Positions 1 to 63,120 are shown, numbered from the stretch's first letter. The stretch: DNA of 64,000 bases from Octopus vulgaris (GCA_951406725.2 OX597832.1:4030001-4094000); one strand, 5' to 3'. Numbers and translations: made by a program. The notes: generated by a model not told the origin, from the letters alone.

Positions 1-185
1 GTTTAGAAAAGTACTTGCTGACACATGAGATGGGAGAGAGAAGCTAATAGAGACTTACACAGTAGAGAACAACTAGGCATCCCTATGAGACAACCTGCCT
101 TGAGTAACAGACCAGATCTATGTCCGTAACAGAGTTCCAAGATGGAAGGTAACATGATGGTGGAATAAAATTGCAAGTAGAGCCA

Positions 186-14931: not shown

Positions 14932-14977
<46 letters not shown>

Positions 14978-14984
14978 TTTCTTT

Positions 14985-15608
14985 TTTTATTCTTTTACTT
15001 GTTTCAGTCATTTAACTGCGGCCATGCTGGAGCACCGCCTTTAATCGAGCAACTCGACCCCTAGGACTTATTCTTTTGCAAGCCCAGTACTTATTCTATC
15101 GGTCTCTTTTGCCGAACCGCTAAGTAACGGGGACATAAACACACCAGCATCGGTTGTCAAGCAATGCTAGGAGGACAAACACAGACACAAACACACACAC
15201 ACGCATATATATAAATACATATATACAACGGGCTTCTTTCAGTTTCCGTCTACCAAATCCACTCACAAGGCTTTGGTCGGCCCGAGGCTATAGTAGAAGA
15301 CACATGCCCAAGGTGCCATGCAGTGGGATTGAACCCGGAACTATGTGGTTGGTAAACAAGCTACCTACCACACAGCCACTCCTGCGCCTATATATTATAT
15401 ACATATTTCTTCTTTTATTTTTTCTTTTATTTGTTTCGGTAATTTGACTGTACCCATACTGGAGCACCACCTTTAGTCGACCCCAGGATTTATTCTTTGG
15501 AAACCTAGTACTTATTCTAGTACTTAGCCGGACCACTAAGTTATGGGGACATAAACACACCAATAATGGTTTTCAAGCAACGGTTGTGGGGGACAAACAC
15601 ATTCACAT

Positions 15609-15666
<58 letters not shown>

Positions 15667-15826
15667 GACAGGCTTCTTTCAGTTTCCGCCTACCAAATCC
15701 ACTCACAAGGCTTTGGTCGGCCCAAGGCTATAGAAGACACTTGCCCAAGGTTTCATGCAGTGGGACTGAACCTGGAACCATGTAGTTGGTAAGCAAGCTA
15801 CTTACTGCACAGCCACTCCTGTGCCT
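14985..15826 (-). mobile_element. Two tandem copies of a tRNA-headed SINE with an internal (TA)/(TG) microsatellite
   Basis: Head ggcgcaggagtggctgtgtggta...gggttcaatccc and tail ...gctccagcatggccgcagt.aaatgactgaaacaagtaaaag. Copies at about 14985-15388 and 15420-15826. Confidence 0.85.
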
Positions 15827-16219
15827 GTATATATATATTATATATAGTGAATCCAAACAAAGAAGAACAAACAAGAAAAACAATAACGCGAGGACATGGT
15901 ACAAGTACTGTATTATTGGACACTCAGGAAAGGAAGGAAAGAGGATTTAACATTTCAAGCAAAGCGCTTCTTCAGAAATAGAGGAAAGACCAAAGGAAGG
16001 GAAGACAGAGGAAGAAAATTGCCAACAATACACACATGGTTACATTATATTATATATATATATATTTGCCATCTAAATATGACTAACCACTAAGGGTGGA
16101 TGTTACTGTAGCTTGTAGCCCCAGGAGAACATCTTCTCCAGCTGGCTATTGACACACTTTCTGTGCCCTATCAGTATTTGCAAAGGGAGGTCATCTTTCC
16201 CTCGTCAACCTAAGTGATA

Positions 16220-16264
16220 CACACAGACTTCAGTTTCTGGGTATTGACCCATCATCAGCGCATG
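16220..16264 (-). ncRNA. Minimal type I hammerhead ribozyme
   Basis: Minus strand CATGCG-CTGATGA-TGGGT(CAAT)ACCCA-GAAA-C(TGAA)G-TC^TGTGTG. Complete CUGANGA/GAAA/GUC core, 5-bp stem II, 2-bp stem III, 6-bp stem I with three G.U pairs. Predicted cleavage between 16226 and 16225. Confidence 0.75.
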
Positions 16265-16273
16265 ACAATCACC

Positions 16274-17853
16274 TTTCTCCTTATTATAGGCACAATGGCT
16301 TGACTGAAGAGGGTACATATAACAAAAATACAGAAAGGATGATATGAAATGAAATATTAACAATGAATTAAATGAAATGGCTTACAAGCCCCCCCCCCCC
16401 AAAGCTCGCAGTTTCATTTACAATTATGGTTATACTATCTGGGGTGTTCATCAGTAATGTAAACGAGTAATTCATCTTGCTCTATAACTCCGGGCAAACT
16501 GTCATATCGAACATAATGCGCTATGGTTACAGCTGTATCTGAAAACAAATTCATTAATTTATTTACCGTCTCTTTTTCCATTATTACAGCCTTTATTTGC
16601 TTAGCTTATATCCTCGGGTTCAATTTCACTCTTGTTTGATTTTTCATTATCGCTAATTTTTTCTCAATTTCTTTATCTTCTGTGTACAATATTACAGCTC
16701 TGAGATTCTTTCCTTTTGGTCTTCCTCCTTCCTTGCATACTTTCAAACATTCTTCCACTTTTGCTGACCATTTTTCCCATTTCTCTCGCCTTGAACCTTC
16801 ACTCACTTTAGTTGCTGTATCTCTCCCTTTGTGTGTTCGATCCTCTACTCGTCAGCATACTTCTTTTTAGTTTTTTTCTTTTCTTGGTTTTGGGTGGTGA
16901 TTCCACCCGTATTAACTTTCTATCCTCTTTTTCTTCTGTTCTTTCCTCTTCTTTCTCCTTCACTAACTCGTCGTCACTTTCCATATTATCTCCTAAATCC
17001 TCTGTCAAAGCTCTTATTGCTTCCTCCAGTGTTATCTTCTTCTCTTGTATTTCTCCTTGAGGACACACATCCTCCATGTGCCCTCTGCTCTTACATTTAT
17101 AAAACACTGGAGGTCTCCCCTCCACCACAACTCTCAGTGGTGTCTCATTGGGGAACACCAACTCCTCCGGGATGTTATACAAATCTGGCATGGTTATGTG
17201 GACTAAAGCTTCCACTGCATAACCCCACTAGTTTATTTCATTCGAATTTTCCACCTTAAGTATGTCCACGTTCTCCTTGCAGTTGTAGATTATTGCAGCT
17301 ACTATTCTTTCGGTATCAAGTTCCAGTGGGATTTTGCTTATTCGTATCCTCACCACTCTTTTTCCACAATAACTAGGGAGTAAAACCCATTTTTCAGATC
17401 TCAACACTGTCGTTGCGTTCCTTTTCACTTCATCTTCATTTTCGAAGCGAACGTCTACCGTAGTGTATTTTCTACCTCTATTGTAGAAGGTAGTTCTTCC
17501 TTTAATTTCTTGTAGATATTTTTCAATCTCTGCTACTTCTATTCTTTTTGAGACCACATTCCATGTTCTGTATGTTATAGATTTTTTCTCCGCTTTTTTC
17601 ACTTCATCTCAGACAGTCTCCTTCCTTCTTGAAGCTGTCGTAGTATTTCCTCAGATTTTCTTTCTCGATAATTATTTCTTTTAACTGTAATTCGTTTGCA
17701 GCCAGGCTTTTGCCTGCTGCTCCCGCATAAGTCTGGGCTTGCATACCCAACAAAGAATTCAACAATTCAACACGACGCAACAGTTTTCAACAACAATAAT
17801 CAAAAAAATTCAACTCACAACCACAAATCCGAAAAACCGACACAAACACTTTC
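16274..17853 (-). mobile_element. Non-autonomous ORF1-only Tx1/L1-like (HAL1-like) element
   Basis: Flanked by a 16-bp direct repeat, gcgcatgacaatcacc (16258-16273) and gtgcacgacaatcacc (17854-17869), 14/16 identical with both differences CpG transitions. Contains 5'UTR, ORF1 and a short 3'UTR ending ...ataataaggagaaa. No endonuclease or RT. Confidence 0.7.
16367..17744 (-). pseudogene. Disrupted LINE ORF1/gag-like protein (about 450 aa) with a CCHC zinc-knuckle remnant
   Basis: Starts MQAQTYAGAAGK at 17744. Continues through track ORFs 17228-17602, 16808-17215 and 16606-16806, then an open stretch to about 16367, with two frameshifts and two in-frame stops. VEGRPPVFYKCKSRGHMEDVCP is CX2CX4HX4C with the first C changed to F, followed by an E/K-rich region. 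Confidence 0.75.
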
Positions 17854-18311
17854 GTGCACGACAATCACCGGTTTATGATGGAAGGGTCCCAATGCAAATA
17901 CATATATCCTTTTTCCAGTGACTTTTCATCACTGATCTTGAAAAAGTGTATACAAGCAATAATAAATCTCTGAACGAGGTATAGACAGTAACTGCACAAC
18001 AATGTGAAGTATATTTGCCATCTAAATATGGTTAACCACTAAGGGTGGATGTTACTGTAGTTCCAAGAGAACATCTTCTTCAGCTGGCTATTGACACACT
18101 ATCTGTGCGTATCACTTAGGTTGACGAGGGAAGGATGACCTCCCTTTGCAAATACCGATAGGGCACAGAAAGTGTGTCAATAACCAGCTGGAGATGTTCT
18201 CCTAGTGCTACAAGCTACAGTAACATCCACCCTTAGTGGTTAGCCATATTTAGATGGCAAATATACTTCACATTGTCATGCAGCTACTGTTTATACCTCG
18301 TTCAGAGATTT

Positions 18312-18362
<51 letters not shown>

Positions 18363-18451: not shown

Positions 18452-18553
18452 GTTTATTTGCCCATCCAAAGCCAGTTGGAGGATTAATACACCTTAAGGA
18501 GAGTGATGAATCAATAGAAAACTACATGACTCAACTCGATGAATTCCTGGAAG
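18452..18553 (+). CDS. ATP1B: Na+/K+-ATPase beta-subunit-like gene, internal coding exon (first one seen in the window)
   Basis: tttttctgtag acceptor and GTCAG donor, phase 1/1. Translates (G)LFAHPKPVGGLIHLKESDESIENYMTQLDEFLE, matching the PGL..P / LD.FL..Y region that follows the TM helix of P-type ATPase beta subunits. Splices in frame to the next exon. Confidence 0.85.
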
Positions 18554-28292: not shown

Positions 28293-28363
<71 letters not shown>

Positions 28364-28995
28364 TGTATATATTCATGTTTGTGTGTGTCTGCGTTTATCC
28401 CCCTGCCATTACTTGACAACTGATGTTGGTGTGTTTTCGTCCTTCAAGCTTAGTGGTTCGGCAAAAGAGACCCATAGAATAAGTACTAGGCTTACAAAGA
28501 ATAAGTCCTGGAGTCGATTTGTTTGAGTCAATTTGTGCTCCAGCATGGTCACAGTCAAGTGACTGAAACAAGTAAAGAATAAAAGAATAAAAGAATACAA
28601 CTCTAGAAAAAAATGTACCTCAACAAAATTCCTTCTAACCCATGTGAGTATGGGAAGGTGAGGAGCTATATGAAACCTTGAGTAAGTGTTTTCTTTTATA
28701 GCCCTGGGCCAATCAAAGCCTTGTGAGTGGATTTGGTAGGTGGAAACTGAAAGAAGCCCATCATATGTGTGTGTGTCTTTGCATCTGTGTGTCCCCCATC
28801 ACCACTTGACAATGTTGTTGGTGTGTTTACATCCCCATAACTTAACAGTTCAGCAAAAGACAACAATAGAATAAGTACCAAGCTTTAAAAATAATAAAAA
28901 AGGCCTGGGGTCGATTTGTTTGTCTAAAACCCTTCAAGACAGTGCCCCAGCATGGCCACAGTCAAATGACTGAAACAAGTAAAAGATAAAAGATA
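28118..28995 (+). mobile_element. Two copies of the microsatellite-containing SINE
   Basis: Copies at about 28118-28595 and 28700-28995. Fragments also at about 24050-24185, 27155-27236, 34112-34190 and 45410-45630. Confidence 0.8.
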
Positions 28996-29627
28996 AGCAC
29001 ATACATTTATGCCAAACAACAACAGTTACAATTATTATAATAAACTAATGAATTTTAGATAACCTTTCAATTAACACATCATATTAACATGATATACTTT
29101 GTTTTACTGTAAAGAGCATTTCAAGTTGTTTTAATCCATCTCATTAGTTTCATGTCAAATCATCTCAACTTTCTTTGATGCTTTAGCATGTAAACTAATC
29201 ATATCTGGCTCAAATATTCTTCTTGTTTTATGTTCAAACCAGCCAGATCTGGTTTCTCACAACCACCCTACAATGTCATTCTAAAATTAAACAATCACAT
29301 CATCAATAACTTGAAGCTTAAAGATAATGCATGATTAATTTAAAACAATGTGAATGAATAAGTATTACATTTCATAGAAGAATCTGAATGCTAAAGGGTT
29401 AAATTGAAGTTTAGGCCTCACTCAAAGAGCATGTGACAGCAGATATAAGAAGATGAGATGAGAGACTGCTAAAGATATTCCAAACTGTACATCAGCTTCC
29501 TTGATTTTAAACCTAAATACTCTTTACATCATGACTAAGTATGGTTGCATGTATATAATAACTATTTAAATGTTTGTTTATTTTCTGAAATTATACTTCA
29601 TTTTGGGTTGTTTTATCTTTATTTTAG

Positions 29628-46375: not shown

Positions 46376-46763
46376 CATGTTGCTGCAGTCACTTAGAGCT
46401 TCTTTCCCAGGCAATGCTACAATCACTCTGTCCACTCACAGCTTCAATGACTTACTCTTCTTACCATATTAAGTCGCAAAGATATTTAAACTTTATTGCT
46501 GGAACATCACCATGTTTAAGCAGTCGCCTTGTCTAGCCCTGTAATGTTGTTCAACAAGGAATGGGTTTTGGTGGTGTTAAGATGTTCTCAACTGTCACCT
46601 GTCAACACTTGTCCAACAGAGTATTCCTTTAACTTTGCAATATCAAGATTTTGAAATGAATATTCTGCTTTTAATTTTGGAGCACACTTTGAACTTCAGT
46701 TTAGCTTGTTTAAGCTTATAACCTGTATTAAATATTGTATGTCTTAAAAACATGGACATCATT

Positions 46764-47608
46764 CATCATCGTTTAACGTCCGCTTTCTGTGCTAGCATGG
46801 GTTAGACAATTTGACTGAGGTCTGGCGAACCAGATGGCTGCACCAGGCTCCAATCTGATCTGGCAGAGTTTCTACAGCTGGATGCCCTTCCTAATGCCAA
46901 CCACTCCGAGAGTGTAGTGGGTGCTTTTACATGGCACAAGGGCCAGTCAGGTGGTACCGGCAATGGCCACGCTCAAATGGTGCTTTTTACGTGCCACCTG
47001 TACAGGAACCAGTCCAGCGACACTGGCAATGACCTCGCTCAAATGTTTTTTCACGTGCCACCAGCACAAGTGCCAGTAAGGCAACACAGGTAATGATCAT
47101 GCTCGAATGGTGTTTTTTACATGTCACTGGCATGGAGGCCAGCTTGTTGCTCTGGCAACGATCACACTCGTATGGTGCTCTTTGTGCTCCACTAGCACGG
47201 ATGCCAGTCATCAAATTTGATTTTGATTTTGATTTCATCTGCCTCAACAGGTCTTCGCAAGCAGAGTTTAGTGTCCAATGAAGGAAAGGTATGCATAAGT
47301 GGGCTGGTTACACCCCTGGCATAGGCCACAAGGTTATGGTCACACTTGAGCTTGCCAAGTCTTCTCAAGCACAGCATATTTCCAAAGGTCCTGGTCACTA
47401 GTCATTGCCTGAGGCCCAATGTTCGAAGGTCATGCTTCACCACCTCATCCCAGGTCTACCTCTTCCACAGGTTCCCTCAACCGCTAGGGTGTGGCACTTT
47501 TTCACACAGCTATCCACATCCATTCTTGCCACATGGCCATACCAGTGCAGTCGTCTCTCTTTCACACTACATCTGATGCTTCTTAGGTCCAACTTTTCTC
47601 TCAGGGTA
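46764..47608 (-). mobile_element. 5'-truncated RTE LINE
   Basis: RRLHWYGHVARMD...GRGRP and the same 3'UTR and tail as the other copies. Confidence 0.88.
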
Positions 47609-48527
47609 CTAATCCTTCTTGTTAAAACATAATTGTTCATGTACCATTTTTTGGAACCTGTACCTCTTTAGATTCACAAAAAGTATTACAAATTTTATTA
47701 GTACATACAATTTTAGCAAGATTAATATACAGAGAGGGGATTCATTAGTAACTAAATGAGTGTATATGAAGGTGCTGAATAACTAAATAGGTTTAGTCAT
47801 AGCATATTGTACGGACCATGACTATTAGCACTCTTACAACACCTACATAAACAAATGGATAAGAGATAAGTTGGAAACAGTCTTAAGTTTTCAAAATTTT
47901 GTTGTTTCAAGAAATTGATATTTCACAATGTCTATTAAGTAATGCAGCCTTGGCTATGAGCATTTCATAAGTTTCTGTAATACAAAGGTCAGACTTCTGT
48001 TGTTCATGTAAGATTTAGCAATGATGAGGATTTTCTAATTTAAGGTGTAGGGTCTATTTTTATTCTTCAGTTCCAAAATATAAGCTGAAAATAATGAGGA
48101 TTTGCTTCTAGTGAAATGTGTACAAATCAAGATGTGCTGATTTTATTAAAATTTGAAATGATTGACAATGGAACTGATGTAGAGTTATATGAAGTTAGTT
48201 GTTGTATATTACATTGATACACTATACAAGGTGCATTCGTAAAGTATCTGACTTTATTTTTTCCTGCCAAAATTAATGCCAAGTAGGCAAAATCCTTTGG
48301 GTGGAAAATGACACAACCCTTTCTACAGGGTGTGAAAATTTTCATGTCACTACAGATGTGTAATGTGCACTCATCAGATTCTCACTTTAATCAAGTTAAT
48401 GAGTCTCATCAACGGATCATTATTAAAATTTGTTTTATGATATTTGAAAGTCTACTCAGAGTCTGTGTCCAAATCAGATGTAAGCCTGTATCTATGAGTA
48501 ATAATTTCATTCAGCATATACCATGAT

Positions 48528-48563
<36 letters not shown>

Positions 48564-48691
48564 TGTAACAGAATTTGAAACAAGACAATTATGCATCATA
48601 TTATTTTTGGTTTTATCATGACGCACACAGACTAAACAGTAATGTCACATTTCCTGAATTTTTCTGCTTAATCAAGATTAAAATGTGTTGT

Positions 48692-50653
48692 TCATCATCA
48701 TCAACATCGTTGTGTAACGTCAGATTTCCTTGCTGGCATGGGTTGGACGGTTTGACTGAGGGCTGGCAAGCCAGAAGGCTGCACCAGGCTCCAATCTGAT
48801 CTGGCAAAGTTTCTACAGCTAGATGCCCTTCCTAACGCCAATCACTCTGAGAGTGTAATGGGTGCTTTTACGTGCCACCGGCATGAGGGCCAGTCAGGCA
48901 GTACTGATACTGACCATGCTCAAATGGTGATTTTTACAATGGTGCTTTTTACATTCCACCACCACGGGAATCAGTCAGGCAGCACCGGCAATGACCACGC
49001 TCAAATGGTGCTTTTTACGTGCCACTGGCACCAGTCAGGCACCACTGGCATTGACCACACTTGAATGGTGCTTTCTATGTGCCACCAGCACAGGTACCAA
49101 TCAAGCAGTACTGGCATCAGCCATGACAATGACATCATTTGACTCAACAGGTCTTCGCAAGCACAATTTATTGTCCAATGATTGAAGGGTACTCTTAAAT
49201 GGGCCGGTTATGCTGCATTTGCATAGGTCACTGGTATGGTCTCACTTGGCTTGCCAGGTCTTCTTAAGCACAGCATACCTTCAAAAGTTTTGGTCACTTG
49301 TCATCGTCTCCATGAGGACCAACAGTCAAAGGTTGTGCTTCACCACCTCATCTCAGGTCTTCCTGGGTCTACCTCTTCCACAGGTTCCCTCTCTGCTGGG
49401 TGTGACACTTTTTCACACAGCTGTCCTTATCCATATGCAACACATGACCATACTAGCGCAGTCGTCTCTTGCACACCACATCTGATGCTTCTTATATCCA
49501 ACTTTTCTCTCAGGGTGCTTACACTCTGTTGTGTATGCACACTGACATTACACAACCAGCGGAGCATACTAGCTTCATTTTTTGCATGCTTACGCATATC
49601 CTCAGCAGTCACAGCATGTTTCACTGCCATGTAGCATGGCTGTTCGCACACATGCATCATACAGTCTACCTTTTACTCTGAGTGAGGGGCCCTTCGTCAC
49701 CAGCAGAGTAGGAGCTCTCTGAACTTTGCCCAGACTATTCTTATTCTAGCAGCTACACTCTCAGAGCATCCACCCCCACTAGAGACTTGGTCACCTAGGT
49801 AACAGAAGCTATCAACTACTTGTAGTTTTTTCCCTGGCATATGATGGAAGCTGTTTTCTGCACAAAAACTGTCTTCTCAGACTTCCTTTGTTATTGCTGC
49901 ACCTCTTATGTGTCCATAGCTTACACAGGGTACATCTTATGGAGTTTCTACCTATGCTTTTTCTACAGATCTACCTGAAGGGATATGCGATTTGTCTGCC
50001 TTCCTTCTTAAGACTTTGGTTTTTGTTAGATTGACTCTAAGGCCCATCGATTCTAGACCTTGCTTCCACACCTGAAACTTCTCCTCTAGTTCTGATAGTG
50101 TCTCAGCTATTAGAGCTAGGTCATCAGCATAGAGAAGCTCCCCGGGGCATCCTGTCTTGAATTCCTCTGTTATTGCCTGGAGGACTATGATGAATAAGAG
50201 GGGGATGAAGACTGATCCTTGGTGGACCACTACCTGAAATTCTTTACTATACTCATTGCCAACCCTCACCTCACTGACAGCATCCCTGCCCATGGCTTGT
50301 ACATAGTTTCCGCATTGACCACCAGATAAGAGATCGGGGGACCCTGTCAAAGGCTTTCTCCAGGTACAGAGGTTTATCTTTGGCTAGGTATTTCTCTCTC
50401 TCCCTAATCAGTTGGGCTATGACCTTCTCCGTGATTTTCATTACCTGATCCAACACCTTGATACCTCTGTAATTATTCGTATCTTTGTAGCAGTTGACTA
50501 TGGTGCTGCTACACCAGTCATTGGGTATGACTTCTTCATGTATCACGTGACTGACTATACGGGTGACTAGACTACAACCGTCACCACCAGATATTTTAAG
50601 CATCTCTGTGGTGATTCCTGATGGGTCAGGAGCTTTCCCTGTCTTCATACCCT
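48692..50653 (-). mobile_element. RTE-clade LINE, 3' part (reverse transcriptase, 3'UTR with internal tandem repeats, (GAT)n tail)
   Basis: NYRGIKVL, LEKAFDRVP, VHQGSV and LLYADDLAL RT motifs. Tail reads catcatcatc on + at about 48693. Confidence 0.92.
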
Positions 50654-52924
50654 TGTAACGAACTTAGAGAGTGAAAATATCTTCTCTTGTACTTTCGGGG
50701 TACAAGAAAGCAATCACTAGCCGTTGCTTTAATAATCCAGATTCTCTACCAGTCAGAAACAACAAGACGCAGACGTAAAAGATATATATACTACTTTATT
50801 CTCTTTCTTGGTAACAGTAACAATAAGTGTGTTATCTGATGTCCTTGGTTCTGGGCGCGCAAGGCTGAAAGTTAATCGATTGTAATATTTACAATGTTCA
50901 GCCGCTAAAACAGAACGGGGTTAAAGATGGCGTCGAACAATGGAGATGATGTTGGTCTGCAACAATTTGGTTAAAGGCCTTTTGGTAAGGACTGCTAGAA
51001 GCAAGTTCGAACGGAGAGAAAATATGCGTGACCGCCGCCTTCAATCGCTGCCGTCCCAAGTCGCCGCTGCTGCTGCCAGCGGTCAAACGTTCTACGGCCC
51101 CCTTGCCTCACTAACTGCTACGTAGGCAATAGGGTTCTTCTTCCAGTGGTTCGCGCATGCGCGAGAGGGCCCTTCCTCTCTCTGCCTTGGTAAAGGCACC
51201 AACACACGCGAAATACAAATGGACGGTGCGCGAGCGCGCGCCGTTATAGGATCACTACAAGGCTCCCCTCCAGTGCGTACGCACGAAAGGAAACTTATTG
51301 TAGTGACTGCAAAACTCAAGGTGGACACCAGATAACCAAATAGCACACAATAATATAATGGCAAAATTTATAACATACACAAGAAATTTACTAAAGGAAA
51401 AAGAGAAAAAATACTCAATGAGCAAAAATCAAGAGTGCATGCATGAAAGTGTATACGTCACAAAGTATAGAGCCTTCCGCTGTAGGAAGCGGAGGGAAAG
51501 CAAAACTCACAGTCAATGAACCTAGGCGAAATTAAATCCAACTTCTCTAAAGGTGGTTAATCCTGCAAAATAGCAGTTAAATCAATTGCTGCAGGAGAGG
51601 AAATGGAATTGACAGAAGCTCGCTAGTAACACAAAAGGCAAAAGTGCAAACATGCTGGTGTGATGCGCGACACAGATAATTTTCTGTTAATTACGTGACC
51701 AACAGTGGTCTAACAGGGAAAAATAATTACGCCTAAACATGGCGCAGCGCATGTGAACATCCGACTTTTTATGAGTCGGGAAAAGAATTAAGCTACTGCA
51801 AACGTGTTGCAAAAAACAAGGCAATACACGTGCGAAGCAATGGCGCATGAAATGCAATAGAGCTTGCCAGACCGAAAAAACAGCAATGAATATGCCAGTG
51901 GTTGAGCGATTATATGCTTCGTTCGTATAGGAACAAAAGTATGACATGCTGGCGCGTTATAATGGACAAACAACCCTCTCTATGTATACGTGACCGCTAG
52001 GGTCTATAGAAATGAGGGGTGTCCACAAAAGGCAAATTTAGCATGGAAAAAAACAAGCGAGAAAAGCATGTGTGACGTATGTATGTGAGAGATAGCATTT
52101 ATGTGTGTGTACGTGTGTGCGACAAAAATACATACAAGGTGAATGTGAGCAAAAAAATAAATACAGCGCATAGAAAAAAATCTCTCTCAAGGCCATCCCA
52201 GACTAGAGTTAGTTTACCAGTCTGCAATAGCCTGATGCACAATAGCAGTTCGTTCTGTAACAGAAATGTTGAAATCACAAAATGCAGATGCCGGTTGAAC
52301 ACAATGTGTAGCGGTTGTAGCTTCAATGCTGTGACAGGTTAAATCGTTACAGAAAAATCTCGTAGATAGACAGTGCTGTTTATCCTTGGTGTGCATATGC
52401 ACCAAACAGCGTGCACGCTAAAGTTCCGCGAGTTGCTATGTACATCTTGTGGAGGTCGACGGTGTTGAAAGGCGACGGTGGTGGTGGCGACTGTAGTGGA
52501 CTTGAGACAACATCGTTCTTAGTGATGATGGCGACGAAGATAACGACGACGTGAAGTAGAAAGACGACGATGGCGATGACGAAGGTGGAGAAAAGGCATC
52601 GATGATGTGATGGCATTCGTCATATTGGCTGTAGAATAAGAAAGAGGCTCCTTCTACAACTGTTTGTGGTGGCCGGAAACAAATCGTCGAAAGATGATGA
52701 CTGCGTAGAGTTAAATCGTGTTCCGACTTCGCAGAAAAACTGGATTTCTTTGTTGTTAAGTGATCTCTGGTTTTAGACCAGAATCACGTCGAGGGGTCAC
52801 CACTGTAACGAATATGTGAGTGTGAGTGTGAGTGAATATCTTCTCTCTGCCTTGGTAAAGGCACCAACACGCGCGAAATACAAATGGACGGTGCGCGAGC
52901 GCGCGCCGTTATAGGATCACTATA
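50654..52924 (-). mobile_element. Non-autonomous LTR retrotransposon (probably Gypsy-derived) nested in an RTE LINE
   Basis: LTR 50654-51259 (TG...CA) and an internally deleted LTR 52804-52924. 4-bp TSD CCCT at 50650-50653 and 52925-52928. Minus-strand PBS TGGTGACCCCtcGACGTGAT at 52802-52783 and polypurine tract GGAGGGGAGCCT at 51271-51260. No gag/pol recognisable in the 1.54-kb interior. Confidence 0.9.
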
Positions 52925-54240
52925 CCCTTAATTGCTTTATCTACCAAGGTACTGTCAATTTGGATAGCTGTTGGGTCGATATTTGGCAGACTCTCTTCCT
53001 CCCATTCATTCTCTTCATTTAGCAACCTTTCATAATGACATCTCCAAGTCTCTCTCTTTGCAGCCTCATTAAATGCAAGTGAGCCATCATCCATGCAGAC
53101 ACATTTCTCTCCCATGACATTATGATTCTCTCTCACACACTGTCTTGCAACACAAAACATTTCAAGTCTTTGGTCCTCATGACACAACATTGGCAAATTT
53201 TTTATCTGCTTCCCCTCTGGCTAAATAAACCTGTCTCCTAGCTTCCCTTCTGGCAATCTGATACAATCCCCTGCTACCACCCTTCTTCCAGTTCTGTTTC
53301 TTCTCTCTAATGGTCCTGTCAAATACACTATTTCACCACCACGTTACCTTGGGTCAAAAGTATGCTTTGCACCATTCACAGATCTGGTCAGTAGCCCTCA
53401 ACAGGTTGTCCCACAGGAACCTCCAGTTGTCTTCCACATCATGTGATGCTATATCCTCCTCTATTTCGTCAAAAGCTTCAAGTAATATGTCTCTAAATCT
53501 CTGTCCATTAACATGGTCCTTAAGCTTCTAGATCCATCTTTTCCATGCTGGTTGTCTACTGGGCATCCATTTAGCTCTGATCCTGAAGTCACTAACTACT
53601 AATCTATGTTGTGGGGTGCATTCTTCACCTGGGAAGGTTTTGGCATTTATAAGTAGCCATCTTTCTTGTTTCCTGGTGAGGATGTAGTCAATTTGACTAG
53701 TGTGTCCACCAGACCAGTAGGTGAATAGGTGACTGGCAAGTTTCCTGAAGTTACTGTTACAAACCATAAGATCAATTGCATTGCTGAATTCCAGTAGCCT
53801 GGTTCCCTCCTCACTGCAGGAACCAAAACCATAGCCACCACATATGCCATAGAAGCCCCCTGCATGTTGTCCAACATGCCCATTGAAGTTGCCAGCCACA
53901 AAGAGAAGGTCCCTGCCATTCATTGATGAGGTAGTCTGCAAGAGGGTGTCATAAAATCGGTCTTTCTGTCCATCGGGTAGCCCTGGCTGAGGGGCATAGG
54001 CCAAGATAATGGTTGCTAATCCATGTTGCAGTACTAGTCTAAGCTCAAGTATTCTATCACAGACTCTGACTACCTCGATTACCTTATCTACCCATTTCTC
54101 CACAAGAAGTATACCCACACCCCCAACCCCATCAGTGATCCCGACCCAGAAAATCTTATACCTATGTTCTTTGCCTGTAAGGAACCTAGCAGAACTTCTC
54201 CACCTTACTTCTTGAATGCAGCACAAATCTACATCTCCGT
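52925..54240 (-). mobile_element. RTE-clade LINE, 5' part (AP endonuclease and linker), decayed
   Basis: CIQEVRW, AYAPQ, GNFNGHVG, SQIDYIL and QHRLVVSDF endonuclease motifs in ORF 53528-54226. Sequence rejoins 50653 across the LTR insertion. Confidence 0.92.
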
Positions 54241-56863
54241 TCAGATATTGTTAATATTTCATATAAAGTTAAGGTGGTCAGCTAGCAGAATCAGAAGTAT
54301 TTTGTCCATCTTCACATTCTGAGCTCAAATTCTGCTGAGGTGAATTTTTCCTTTCATATTTTTGGGGTCAATAAAATAAGTACCAGTTGAGCACTGGAAT
54401 TGATGTAATCAACTTATCCTCTCCCCCAAAATTGCTGGCCTTGTGCCAAAATTTGAAACTAATATTTTGTATAAAGTCAAAGAGATCATCTTCAGAGTTT
54501 TGAAGTCTCCTAATATCACCAATATTCAAGAGGAATACCACTAACTGTGTGTCATATCACTAAACACTATTCAAACAATATGAAGTAATGAGGCAACTTG
54601 ATCAGAATAACAGCTAATTCTTCTTATATAACACTTCCCACCTTAAAAAAGGAAAGACAGTAAATAATGTAGTCCTACATTATTTACACACTACATCTAG
54701 AAAAGAAAATAGAAATAGATAGGATGGTCAAAGCTGGAATGCTTTTGATCAGAGCTGATATGAAACCCACAACTCAAATAATAAAGCGCTATATGTAACA
54801 CTCTTACAGAAAAAAACCGTTCCAGTTCCTACTTGCTTTGCTTTCAAATCAACAATGCTGTACAACTTTTCAACATTATTTTCACATAGAATGTCAAATG
54901 CAAAGACTTCTCTAATCACTCCAAACCAGACAGCCATTCTATTATTCTGTGACAGTGCACTCTCCAGCTAGCTCTTATTCTACCTTAATTTTCCCCTTTC
55001 TACAGGTCTCTTAGATCCAAACTATGGCTATACATGAGGATGTGAAATCATCATCAGAAATTATTAATGATTGTGAAGGTTTTGTTGTATAATATTCTTA
55101 ACTCAGAGTGATTGTGGTACAAGTGTTTCTGTTGTGTGCAGTGATTATGTCATTCTGCTGTTGAAAGAGAGACAAGATTAATGTCTCTACTGGAGAATGT
55201 CACTGAGATATATATTAACAACAGAGGCTGTATTAATACCAAGCAATAATATTTATCCCCACTTAAATGTGAATGTTCTGTTAGAACAGACCACAAGGGT
55301 TGCTGAAAAGTTCCTTGCTTTAAGGATATAATAAAAGCCTGGTTGGAAGCCCAACCTTCCAAGTTCTTCTACAGGGCTAGAAAAACTGAAGGACTGCTGC
55401 AATGAGTAAATCTGGGAGGGGAATATGTTGAATAAAATCATAACAGATCCTCCTGTATTTTCTTTCAGCACCCACCCTGTATACTGTGGTAGACAAACTT
55501 TCATACTGGCTTTTGGTGTAAAATGCTAGCAATATAAACAAGAGTGCGTTTTGCACCAAAAGCCAATACATGTGTTCCTCTCATGGTATCTACTGCAGTA
55601 TAGTTTGTTCTAACAGAACACCCACGTTTAAGTGGAGACAAATGTCACCAGTGTTTCTGTTCATGAAAGTAGTATAGATTTGTTTTAAGGTGTTTTGGTT
55701 GCATGTGATAACATTTGGGTGCATAAGGTTAGTGGAGAGTGAAAGGTGGTCTAATTTCAATAGTGGTGAGTTATGTTGGGAGTGACAGCATGTAGGTCAT
55801 TAATATACAGCACGTCGGGCGAAATGCTTATCGGTATTTCGTCAACTGCTACGTTCTGAGTTCAAATTCCGCCGAGGTCGACTTTGCCTTTCATCCTTTC
55901 GGGGTCGATTAAATAAGTACCAGTTACGTACTAGGGTCGATATAATCGACTTAATCTGTTTGTCTGTCATTGTTTGTCCTCTCTGTGTTTAGCCCCTTGT
56001 GGGTAGTAAAGAAAGAGAAATATACAGGAGGAAGGGTGTGGGTAACATAACCAAACCTTAGAACACACCAGAGTTGGTAGAGATCAGTTCAGGGATTGCT
56101 CTGTCAGTAAATACTATGATGGTGCAATTTGAGACTCTAACTGATCAGAGATTACAGGCATGATTCATCCTGTGTTACTCTATATAACAACAAAACCTCC
56201 AAAAGAATATACAATAGCAGTTGAACTTAGACTGGATGAGTTGAAATTAAGATTCAATCTTCAAATATTTTAATGATTTTGATAAAAGTAATTTTTCCCA
56301 GAATGATTTTAACTGCTTCCACTTAAACATTTTCACTTAATGAACAGGATTTTTTCCATTCAATAGTACCAAACTATATTTATCATTACAATATTTGTAG
56401 ATCGTTTTGGTGCCTTCTTTCTTTTGTTCATATTGAGATAAACAAGTTTTGTTTCCTAGTTTTAAATACCCTGTCTCAATTACATCTTTAAATGTCTTTC
56501 AAAAAGGCATAGAACAATATAAACAATGAAATTTTGTGGTGTGTATAAAAGTTTAAGTTATACACATACATGCAGGTATCTCTCTCTCTCTCTCTATCTA
56601 TGAAACAAATTCTTATTTGTAAGCTAACAAACTGTTCACACTAAACACCTTTTCTCTATCCATTTACTGCAACAGTTTTAATATTTTTCTGTAAAGAAAA
56701 ATCCATCATTTCTCAGGACTTTTTCATAAGTTCTTCACATTTTGCAAAGGTTTTACTATTTGTACACATTCATTTCCATAATTTTGTGTACAATTGTACT
56801 CAACACTCTTAAAAAATTTGTATTGGGAGCTTTTGAAATGTGTAAAATTATTTTATCAAAATA

Positions 56864-60289: not shown

Positions 60290-61052
60290 ACAAAGCAGAA
60301 TACAGTAATGTATACATGGTGATGGGGGAAGAAACAATACATAATATTGTCTCTGGTTGCCCAGTCTTGACCAAGAAAGAATATATCCACAGACATGATA
60401 GTGCTGGAACTTACATACACTGGATGTCATACCAAAACTAAGGAATGCCAACAGAAAAGAGATTACATAGGCATACTCCAGAAAAGGTGTCACAAAATGA
60501 CAAAATAACCATTGGGCTGCCACCCTCTTGACACCCAAGCCACATTCCTAGCACACACACCCAACTAACCATCACAAACATAGACCTCTTTCTGAAGCAA
60601 ATTCAAAGCAACAGTATTTCACAAATAAAACTTAAAACTAATGAACCCATTATTTTGTTGTTTTTACATGAATCACCACTCCATTATTGCCCCAATATTC
60701 ACATGAATCGCTACCCCATTATTGCCCCACGTTTCTTTCCACTGCTCCCCTCGGGGGGGGGGGGGACCGCCCACTTTGGGAACCACTGTCCTAGTATATG
60801 CCAATACACACATAAGAAGATCAAGATGAATCAGTCAGATACTGTTGCCAAGAACAACAAATTCTTTAAAAAAACCTGGTAATTGGCATCCCAGATGACT
60901 ATGTATCTCTGAAAGAAAGAGAGAAACTATCAAAATACAAAGATCTGGAGACAGAAATAACCTGAAAACAGAAAACAATCCCTATAGGTGCTTTAGGTAT
61001 GGTCAAAAAACATGCAGACAAAACATAGCCAAAATCCCAGGACTTTACAAAT
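60290..61052 (+). mobile_element. R4/Dong/NeSL-type LINE remnant (restriction-like endonuclease region), interrupted
   Basis: ETIHNIVSGCPVLTKKEYIHRHD (zinc-finger/RH motif) and later KEREKLSKYKDL...PIGALG at about 60880-61005. Confidence 0.7.
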
Positions 61053-61055
61053 ATA

Positions 61056-61655
61056 TAGGTGCAGGAGTGGCTGTGTGGTAAGTAGCTTGCTTACCAACCA
61101 CATGGTTCTGGGTTCATTCCCACTGCATGGTACCCTGGGCAAATGTCTTCTACTATAGCCTCGGGCCGACCAAAGCCTTGTGAGTGGATTTGGTAGACGG
61201 AAACTGGAAGAAGCCCGTCGTATATATGTATGTATATATATATATATACACTCATGGAGTGGTTGGCGTTAGGAAGGGCATCCAGCCGTAGAAACATTGC
61301 CAGATCAGACTGGGCCTGGTGCAGCCTTCTGGCTTCCCAGACCTCAGTTGAACCGTCCAACCCATGCTAGCATGGAAAGCGGACGCTAAACGATGATGAT
61401 GATGATGATGTGATATATATATATATATATATATATGTGTATATGTTTGTGTGTCTGTGTTTGTCCCCCACCAACATCGCTTGACAACCGATGGTGGTGT
61501 ATTCACGTGCCCGTAACTTAGCGGTTCGGCAAAAGAGACCGATGGAATAAGTACTAAGCTTACAAAGAATAAGTCCTGGGGTTGATTTACTCGACTAAAG
61601 GCAGTGCTCCAGCATGGCCACAGTCAAATGACTGAAACAAGTAAAAGAGTAAGAG
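61056..61655 (+). mobile_element. Microsatellite-containing SINE with an RTE tail inserted in its internal (TA)n
   Basis: SINE head 61056-61222, RTE 3' end 61250-61410, SINE tail 61440-61655. Confidence 0.85.
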
Positions 61656-61804
61656 ATTATATATAGGCACCACTCACATCTGACAGAGCAGAGCACTTTC
61701 AATACAAACCACCGCACATACCCAAGGCACACACAATTGTGCTCAAGAGTGTAATGAGAGCAGGGAATAAACACAAAAGTAGTGAACAACAATAATAAAC
61801 TTAA

Positions 61805-63120
61805 TATAGGCACAAGGGCTGAAATTTTGGAGGAGGGAGTAATTGATTACATCAATACCCAATAATTGACTGGTACTTATTAACCTTGAAAGAATGAAAG
61901 GCAACATAGGCAGAATTTAAACACAAAATGTGAAGTCTGAAGAAAAATGCTGCTGAGCACTTTTCCTGCCGCACTAACAATTCTGCCAGCTTACTGCCTT
62001 TAACAATTACAACAATAACCCTTTTCACTATAGGTACAAAGCCTGAAATTTGGGGGATGGGAACTAGTTGATTACATCAACCACACTGTTCAACTGGTAC
62101 TCATTTCATTGATCCTAAAAAGGATTTGAACTCAGAATGTAAAGACGGACAAAATGACACTCAATATTTTGTCCACCATGCTAACAATTCTGCCAGTTTC
62201 AGGCGATAATAATAATAATAATAACAATAATAATGGTTTCAAATTTTGGCACAAGGCCAGCCATTTCGGGAGAGGGGGTAAGTCAATTACATTGACCCCA
62301 GTGCTCAACTGGTACTTATTTTATCCACTCTGAAAGGATGAAAGGCGGTGTGGACCTCAGTGGAATTTGAATTCAGAATGTAAAGACAGATGAAACACCA
62401 CTAAGCCATTTTGCCCAGCATGCTAACAATTCTGCCAGCTTGCTGCCTTAATAATAATAATCCTTATTGAAGACCTGTTGAGGCAAGTGAGGATCAGAAT
62501 CGAAATCGATCAATGGAAATTGCAGATGTGTTACCAGTGCCGGTGGCATGTCGAAACTCTACTTGTGAAGACCCGTTGAGGCAAGTGAGGATCAGAATGG
62601 AAATCGATCAATGGAAATTGCAGATGTGTTACCAGTGCCGGTGGCATGTAAGAGAACCTTCCGTTTCGTGACCGTTGCCAGCACCGCCCCGTTTCGTGTC
62701 CGTTGCCAGCCTCGCCTGGCCCTTGTGCCGGTGGCACATAAAAAGCACCATCCGTTCGTGGCCGTTTGCCAGCTCTGTCTGGCACCTGTGCGGGTGGCAC
62801 GTAAAAAGCACCCACTACACTCACGGAGTGGTTGGCGTTAGGAAGGGCATCCAGCCGTAGAAACACTGCCAGATTTGACTGGGCCTGATGAAGCCTTCTG
62901 GCTTCACAGACCCCAGTAGAACCGTCCAACCCATGCTAGCATGGAAAATGGACGCTAAACGATGATGATGATGATGATGAATAAAGGCACAAGGACTGAA
63001 ATTTTGGGGAAGGGGACTAGTCGATTACAGCAACCCCAATGTTTCACTGGTACTTAATTTATTGACTCCGAAAGGACGAAAGGCAAAGTCAACCTTAGCA
63101 GAATTTGAACTCAGAATGTA
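61805..63120 (-). mobile_element. Cluster of four head-to-tail Meta-domain-like SINEs
   Basis: Copies at about 61805-62000, 62030-62200, 62233-62450 and 62985-63120, separated by (AAT)n. An RTE tail lies between the last two. Confidence 0.8.
62468..62980 (+). mobile_element. RTE 3'UTR fragment with an internal ~84-bp direct duplication
   Basis: 62468-62551 is repeated at 62566-62649. Ends in ggacgctaaacgatgatgatg. Shorter tails of the same family lie at about 44101-44350, 45048-45340 and 61250-61410. Confidence 0.8.

Follow-up and report, generated by a model that had tools for sequence, protein, structure and literature searches.

Which autonomous element moves the retrozymes of animals is under discussion, with Penelope elements proposed for the part (PMC7229834; bioRxiv 10.64898/2026.07.22.740005), and the role of the hammerhead in Penelope-type transposition is likewise at issue, the ribozyme having been reported as dispensable in vitro (PMC11167929). 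The locus described here combines a retrozyme-sized monomer with the signatures of a Penelope insertion, and its inverted arm starts at the point where the hammerhead is predicted to cut. Does that junction record the cleavage of an RNA in the germ line, and what kind of element was inserted? One copy settles neither of the two general questions; the family is abundant enough, however, for its junctions to be counted in any octopus assembly.

Layout of the locus and its family

When the nested insert is removed, the minus strand of the locus shows a non-coding monomer of 353 nt that is repeated in tandem for 1.3 units (Table 1). A first, sequence-only reading of this DNA had described it as a partial tandem of about 350 nt with an element nested in it, and its coordinates were right. 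The monomer, counted without the insert and with one of the two target duplicates, has a GC content of 41% and contains no long reading frame. Its positions are numbered from 16225 (minus strand), the first base past the predicted cut. Along the minus strand the order of the parts is (TA)n, inverted arm (copy C), copy B, insert, hammerhead, copy A, and again (TA)n; the (TA)n runs at both ends, as well as the inverted copy at the 5' side, running from position 1 onward, had thus been correctly recognized. The element is present once within the window (the whole 64-kb stretch of DNA that was analysed).

Table 1. Positions of the parts of the locus, counted from the first letter of the window.
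Feature	Position	Strand	Remark
(TA)n flank, 3' end of direct arm	16046..16061		sequence
Copy A, monomer positions 1-164, downstream of the predicted cut	16062..16225	-	without tail
Type I hammerhead (predicted)	16212..16273	-	descriptor match; cleavage predicted
Target duplication, downstream copy	16258..16273	-	14 of 16 alike with 17854-17869
Nested element, 1.58 kb	16274..17853	-	separate, far less abundant family
Target duplication, upstream copy	17854..17869	-	17857-17869 if the insert 5' end is 17856
Copy B, 5'-truncated, positions 60-321, including the tail zone (165-226)	17854..18108	-	
Inversion junction, with 6-7 nt that both arms can supply	18102..18108		
Copy C, inverted arm, positions 1 to about 213	18104..18313	+	no catalytic core
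(TA)n flank, outer end of inverted arm	18315..18349		sequence

The arms of the locus end at position 164 on one side and at about 213 on the other, the 3' end of copy C exceeding that of copy A by about 49 nt (a one-sided tail). Copies A and C differ by 7 substitutions in 161 columns, and copies A and B in 6 of 98 columns and by one indel. The A/B divergence resembles the decay of the target duplication of the insert, and does not separate a circular from a multimeric template. The private changes (one in A, five in B, two in C) are distributed unevenly to an extent that is not significant (P 0.26). Copy B carries a 7-nt deletion that is absent from copy C, and most of its changes are not found there. 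No target duplication of the whole insertion is readable in the (TA)n flanks. The monomer is predicted to be highly self-paired, with an unusually stable circular fold: the calculated energy is -102.9 kcal/mol, compared with -84.4 +/- 5.0 kcal/mol for 100 shuffles (z -3.7).

The family was followed in the contigs of four of 24 public sequencing runs (X1, X2, X15 and X18, the last presumed to be RNA), aligned to 16066-18108 at 82% likeness; for X1 about 80% of the contigs were covered. The summed depth in X1, which is not a copy number, amounts to 1.2-1.3 million over positions 23-160, 0.33-0.35 million over 17929-18066, and 0.07-0.13 million around the hammerhead and on its upstream side; over the insert it falls to 0.8-19 thousand. 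The repeat and the insert are plainly different families. Several joints skip the insert (16273 to 17887, 16273 to 17886 and 16268 to 17887 in X1, 16258 to 17887 in X2), which means that the uninterrupted tandem monomer exists in other copies. A native 1.9-kb unit with the 1.58-kb ORF as a part of it was considered and rejected, given the depth of the ORF, lower by about two orders, and the other copies that skip the insert.

Among the best 24 of 942 rows of loose ends, those with a TA- or AT-rich flank lie at 17949 (18 contigs, X2), 17954 (18 contigs in X2 and 3 in X18) and 17955 (2 contigs, X18), which correspond to monomer positions 220-226, and at 16068 (position 158; 3 contigs, X18). The 3' ends of the family therefore form, among the rows listed, two TA-flanked zones about 55 nt apart. 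In both X1 and X2 the sequence upstream of the cut has about one tenth of the depth found downstream, and the main subfamily differs from the locus copy over positions 1-24. The depth profile of X15 resembles the DNA profile. In X18 the cut site is spanned by three of the contigs listed, as would be the case for a precursor, a circle or DNA alike, and positions of about 247-315 are almost uncovered. No accumulation of molecule ends was listed, a feature that contigs are not able to display. Two X1 contigs match up to 16260, just upstream of the core, and continue into ~95 nt of other sequence; perhaps they stem from an autonomous partner that carries this hammerhead in its pLTR, or from another insertion at the place where the insert itself lies. 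An exact-pattern scan gave no match in viral contigs and none in prokaryote genomes, and the sole match in metagenomes was rejected as a chance 20-mer in unrelated coding DNA.

The predicted hammerhead

The hammerhead was located with a descriptor composed from the general core motifs, and it is the sole match on both strands of the 64 kb. In a dinucleotide-shuffle control, one of 200 sequences gave any match and none an equally strict one. A search of Rfam returned no hammerhead at E values up to 10, just miRNA-type matches driven by repeats. The type I core is complete, with CUGAUGA (C3 = 16258), GAAA and GUC (for the general CUGANGA, GAAA and NUH) and helices I-III in order; C17 is 16226, and the predicted cut lies between 16226 and 16225. 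Helix I consists of a 6-bp proximal part (three of the six pairs are G-U), an internal loop, and a distal stem. Helix II has 4-5 bp, UGGG(U)/(A)CCCA, with a U-A pair at 10.1-11.1 in place of G10.1-C11.1, and helix III has 2 bp, AC/GU, closed by a UGAA tetraloop. An ATG-ATG at 16255-16252 (minus strand), 27 nt ahead of the cut, overlaps both the core and the beginning of helix II.

The motif had been called a minimal type I hammerhead with a full core. The type I core stands, and the word minimal does not: in the definition of the two builds given in PMC4209133, the minimal hammerhead of Penelope-like elements has no helix III, a helix II of 7-8 bp, and a helix I of 4-5 bp, so that the present build, as judged from its sequence, is canonical. 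Invertebrate hammerheads whose helix III has 2 bp and a tetraloop have been reported to cut as monomers (PMC7229834, PMC7761336). As also pointed out in the earlier reading, which regarded this as expected of dimer-dependent cleavage, the stem III segment ACTGAAGT is one change off a palindrome. The pairs of helix III have a probability of 0.001 in the fold model of the monomer, and the corresponding dimer duplex is calculated at -2.8 kcal/mol. The isolated 65-nt hammerhead piece folds only modestly better than shuffled sequences (11 of 200 were as good). These folding results, the U-A pair and the empty Rfam search speak against the hammerhead.

The other copies of the family lend the predicted hammerhead favourable, though thin, support. 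The consensus of the loose ends at 16201 (74 contigs in X1, 63 in X2) keeps the GUC, and the first pair of helix I is of the Watson-Crick type. One variant contig of X15 shows a compensated helix II with G10.1-C11.1 and, in helix III, a perfect six-base palindrome.

Insertion and the inversion junction

Every feature of the locus belongs to a described kind. With the metazoan non-LTR retrozymes (Cervera and de la Pena 2020, PMC7229834) it shares a non-coding tandem monomer (353 nt and 41% GC, thus within about 170-400 nt and under 50% GC; mussel retrozymes have 350-390 bp), a canonical type I hammerhead, a stable predicted circular fold, and a genomic copy of more than unit length. It differs from them in its 1.3 units, its one complete hammerhead, and the U-A pair at 10.1-11.1, and it adds the inverted arm and the one-sided tail; the word "inverted" has no occurrence in the available text of that paper, which also names no octopus family.

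The added features are those of Penelope insertions, in which two direct repeats, an adjacent inverted one, a one-sided tail, and microsatellite targets have been described (PMC3846280, PMC8557442), with palindromes at the inverted junctions (PMC3846280). The protein of the lizard Penelope element nicks both strands at AT-rich DNA, and copying starts at two sites within the RNA, which delimit the tail (PMC11167929). In common with the insertions of endonuclease-bearing Penelope elements, the locus has a partial tandem, an adjacent inverted 5' arm whose overlap with the direct arm falls on a palindrome, a one-sided tail, an AT-rich (TA)n target, and a hammerhead in the repeat; an ATG at the start of helix II is found in both (PMC11167929), and the family ends, among the best 24 of 942 rows, indicate two internal start zones. 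The tail zone is of about 50-60 nt in the locus and its family, compared with 30-40 bp in Penelope elements. Unlike these elements, the locus contains neither an RT nor a GIY-YIG ORF, and its hammerhead is canonical, not minimal (PMC4209133). The earlier label of a retrozyme or Penelope pseudo-LTR-like repeat is in line with the monomer size, the hammerhead, the tandem with its inverted arm, the (TA)n target, and the uninterrupted monomers found elsewhere.

A link of this sort has been proposed by Li, Clavereau and Pollet (bioRxiv 10.64898/2026.07.22.740005), who regard retrozymes as non-autonomous derivatives of Penelope elements, and the locus fits their proposal. As far as the available text shows, its basis is co-occurrence and the phylogeny of the pLTRs, mainly in vertebrates, whereas the present locus, likely from a cephalopod, adds signatures at the insertion site. 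What they define as an active retrozyme, with two units in succession whose hammerheads are both complete, would not include the locus. In the open-access literature no account of an octopus retrozyme or hammerhead family was found; repeat libraries such as Repbase, supplements, and closed-access papers may already contain the family. The main text of a 2026 paper on O. vulgaris repeats does not contain the word "ribozyme". A literature search for a retrozyme with a Penelope tail and an inverted arm gave general papers alone.

We are moderately confident that the locus is a copy of an abundant 353-nt repeat with a predicted hammerhead, that is a non-LTR retrozyme, which was inserted at (TA)n by Penelope machinery and whose two arms were joined at a self-complementary patch. 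This reading is preferred because the inverted arm, the one-sided tail, and the (TA)n target are the described Penelope signatures. The endonuclease would nick both strands of (TA)n. One nick would then prime copying at a position of about 164, from which 458 nt would be read on a template that may have been an uncut multimer or a ligated circle; the read-through of GUC is itself observed. The other nick would prime at the second start zone (about 213-226), with copying towards position 1. The new DNA ends would anneal at the inverted repeat formed by positions -2..+11 and 53..66, and would be trimmed and joined. As can be seen in the structure, an unrelated ORF1-like element has landed in helix I, duplicating 13-16 bp.

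The sequence-only reading went further, and took the inverted arm as reverse-transcribed from a self-cleaved RNA, which would make the locus genomic evidence of an active ribozyme. In this account the inverted arm was copied from a hammerhead-cut linear monomer, on which the reverse transcriptase ran off at position 1, the product annealing to the first cDNA. We regard it as a tentative alternative, and one on which the junction speaks in both directions. The inverted arm does start within a span of 7 nt that contains the predicted cut, and the TCTGTG microhomology noted earlier is present in the sequence. All bases of 18102-18108 can, however, be read from copy B alone, and copy C is therefore required only from position 6 (18109).

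The junction is part of the imperfect inverted repeat named above, and it is one of 24 exact inverted pairs of at least 6 nt in the monomer. Among 25 listed DNA duplex clusters its patch ranks fifth (-9.4 kcal/mol, the best being -11.1 kcal/mol). If the two bases upstream of the cut are included, the duplex reaches -9.1 to -9.4 kcal/mol, and if they are left out it falls to -6.7 kcal/mol (rank 24), which argues against a template that ended at the cut, although a cut end would still offer 4-5 bp and a further 5 bp at the latter energy. By a hand count, microhomology alone would place the start at the cut in one of ~43 configurations, in up to three of 43 with looser limits, or in one of ten if the choice is limited to the five strongest patches, that is in about 2-10% of events. 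The coincidence of the junction with the cut is real and suggestive, and it was picked out because it is a coincidence.

In the direct arm the GUC junction is crossed and intact, which means that at least one template was uncut or re-ligated. If the inverted arm did stem from a cleaved RNA, a single insertion would have used two RNA forms, a circle or uncut multimer for the direct arm and a cut linear monomer for the inverted arm, a combination that we consider conceivable but rather doubtful. Linear monomers make up from under 5% to 50% of the retrozyme RNA in mussels and corals (PMC7229834), and the GUC kept in the main-subfamily consensus of X1 and X2, the Watson-Crick first pair of helix I, and the X15 variant with its compensated helix II and palindromic helix III are also in favour of such a ribozyme product. 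On the other side, hammerhead-dead RNA of the lizard Penelope element inserts normally in vitro, and no RNA-seq reads of that element were reported to end at the cut (PMC11167929).

A pile-up of copy boundaries at GUC was to be expected from the cleavage account. Among the best 15 of 74 joints, four change strand in other copies (16125/16169, 16173/16272, 16188/18037 and 17966/18001), and none of the four has an end at the cut, either at 16225 or at 16201, the point where a main-subfamily arm starting at the cut would leave the alignment. Among the best 12 of 49 gapped joints none has an end near 16225 or starts at 16201. The rows listed are the best-supported ones, in which a recurrent common junction would be expected to be visible, and the sample is small and biased; moreover, given the divergence of the main subfamily over positions 1-24, any joints that it has at the cut are less likely to be seen. 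One copy alone does not demonstrate the cutting of RNA. It is thus possible, yet hardly to be called probable, that the template of the inverted arm ended at position 1 through a ribozyme cut; the claim is not upheld in its original form, as the same spot is also the fifth of 25 patches and the direct arm crosses the intact junction. If two RNA forms were indeed used, the locus would preserve a trace of germ-line cleavage by a ribozyme and of the mobilization of a retrozyme by Penelope enzymes, and the very abundant octopod family would allow genome-wide counts of both.

We consider it unlikely that the repeat is instead the pseudo-LTR of an autonomous Penelope element, or a tandem amplified as DNA, with no circular RNA and with mostly short, 5'-truncated ends. 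The ~tenfold lower depth upstream of the cut in X1 and X2 would fit such ends, but the drop is at least partly due to sequence divergence beyond 16201. The two X1 contigs that exit at 16260 into other DNA look like a pLTR beside a coding body, whereas in the locus the two ends of the 353-nt unit meet with no coding body between them, a join that other copies share. The ATG at the start of helix II has its counterpart in the lizard element (PMC11167929), but the frame from it stops after 16 codons in the locus copy. Frog retrozymes and pLTRs are related (bioRxiv 10.64898/2026.07.22.740005), which would also suit this alternative; against it speak the canonical build of the hammerhead, which is associated with retrozymes (PMC7229834), and the unusual stability predicted for the circular fold.

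Very unlikely is an inversion after or apart from retrotransposition (DNA fold-back or repair), or a 1.58-kb element carried as cargo between repeats, since, although the junction sits on an inverted repeat, copy C extends about 49 nt further than copy A, which rules out a simple fold-back on the latter, lacks the 7-nt deletion and most of the changes of copy B, and has its outer end near the second end zone of the family.

The nested insert and the surroundings

The insert comprises a 5' leader, a broken ORF, a zinc knuckle near 17100, a G-run, and an A-rich end. The ORF starts with the ATG at 17744, shows a frameshift near 17610, and is interrupted by a stop at 17228-17230, within which most contigs of the insert family carry a different base. 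The target duplication has 16 bp with two differences or, in the shorter reading, 13 bp with one (12 of 13 alike), and one contig of the insert family ends at 17856. The duplication restores the whole 5' strand of helix I, and thereby the predicted hammerhead survives the insertion.

Relatives of the ORF number 314 proteins at E values up to 0.001. Of ten matches that were looked up, seven bear names from Octopus bimaculoides, O. sinensis, O. vulgaris or Argonauta and three bear none, and the host is accordingly likely to be an octopod. In the O. bimaculoides relative a zf-CCHC domain exceeds the Pfam cut-off, and zf-CCHC-type is the top family (E up to 0.01) in six of 13 further relatives. 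No Pfam family with L1 in its name was matched among the relatives scanned, and a 126-aa piece of the insert protein had no match among longer proteins. HAL1 elements are ORF1-only derivatives of L1, and L1-Tx1 elements have an ORF1 of their own. The insert is alike to them in its single zinc-knuckle ORF, its A-rich end, and the 13-16 bp duplication, features that suggest an ORF1-only element of the L1/Tx1 type. It differs in that the relatives of its protein are unnamed proteins or octopod proteins of the CCHC type, and no search linked the protein to L1 or Tx1.

One X2 contig with a depth of 300 joins the 3' end of the insert (16281) via 36 letters to the middle of the ORF (17384); this is a head-to-tail partial tandem of the insert family. 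Three further X2 contigs share the G-run and the 3' end of the insert and differ upstream of 16394, and possibly belong to an autonomous partner with a common 3' end.

To the right of the locus, an exon-like piece of 102 nt (18452-18553, plus strand) is preceded by a pyrimidine tract with AG and followed by a GT. The encoded peptide presumably resembles a Na,K-ATPase beta subunit; the piece gave no Pfam match and no useful PDB match, and among the 38 of 52 candidate plus-strand frames scanned in Pfam for a host gene none reached an E value of 0.05. If the exon is real, the element would be intronic, its hammerhead would be antisense to the host gene, and its arms would be able to form double-stranded RNA. 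An abundant SINE-like repeat, about 440-470 bp long and with a (CA)n(TA)n tract inside it, is found at 14949-15845, 1367-1814, 28328-29010 and 61050-61664, and two of its copies stand in tandem directly left of the element. Farther along the window, a decayed LINE fragment at 53528-54250 (minus strand) has an Exo_endo_phos match with an E value of 0.00017, below the cut-off, and related pieces lie near 46757-50127. Recent 84-bp duplications, each 97.6% alike, are present at 51174-51257 and 52839-52922, and at 62468-62649.
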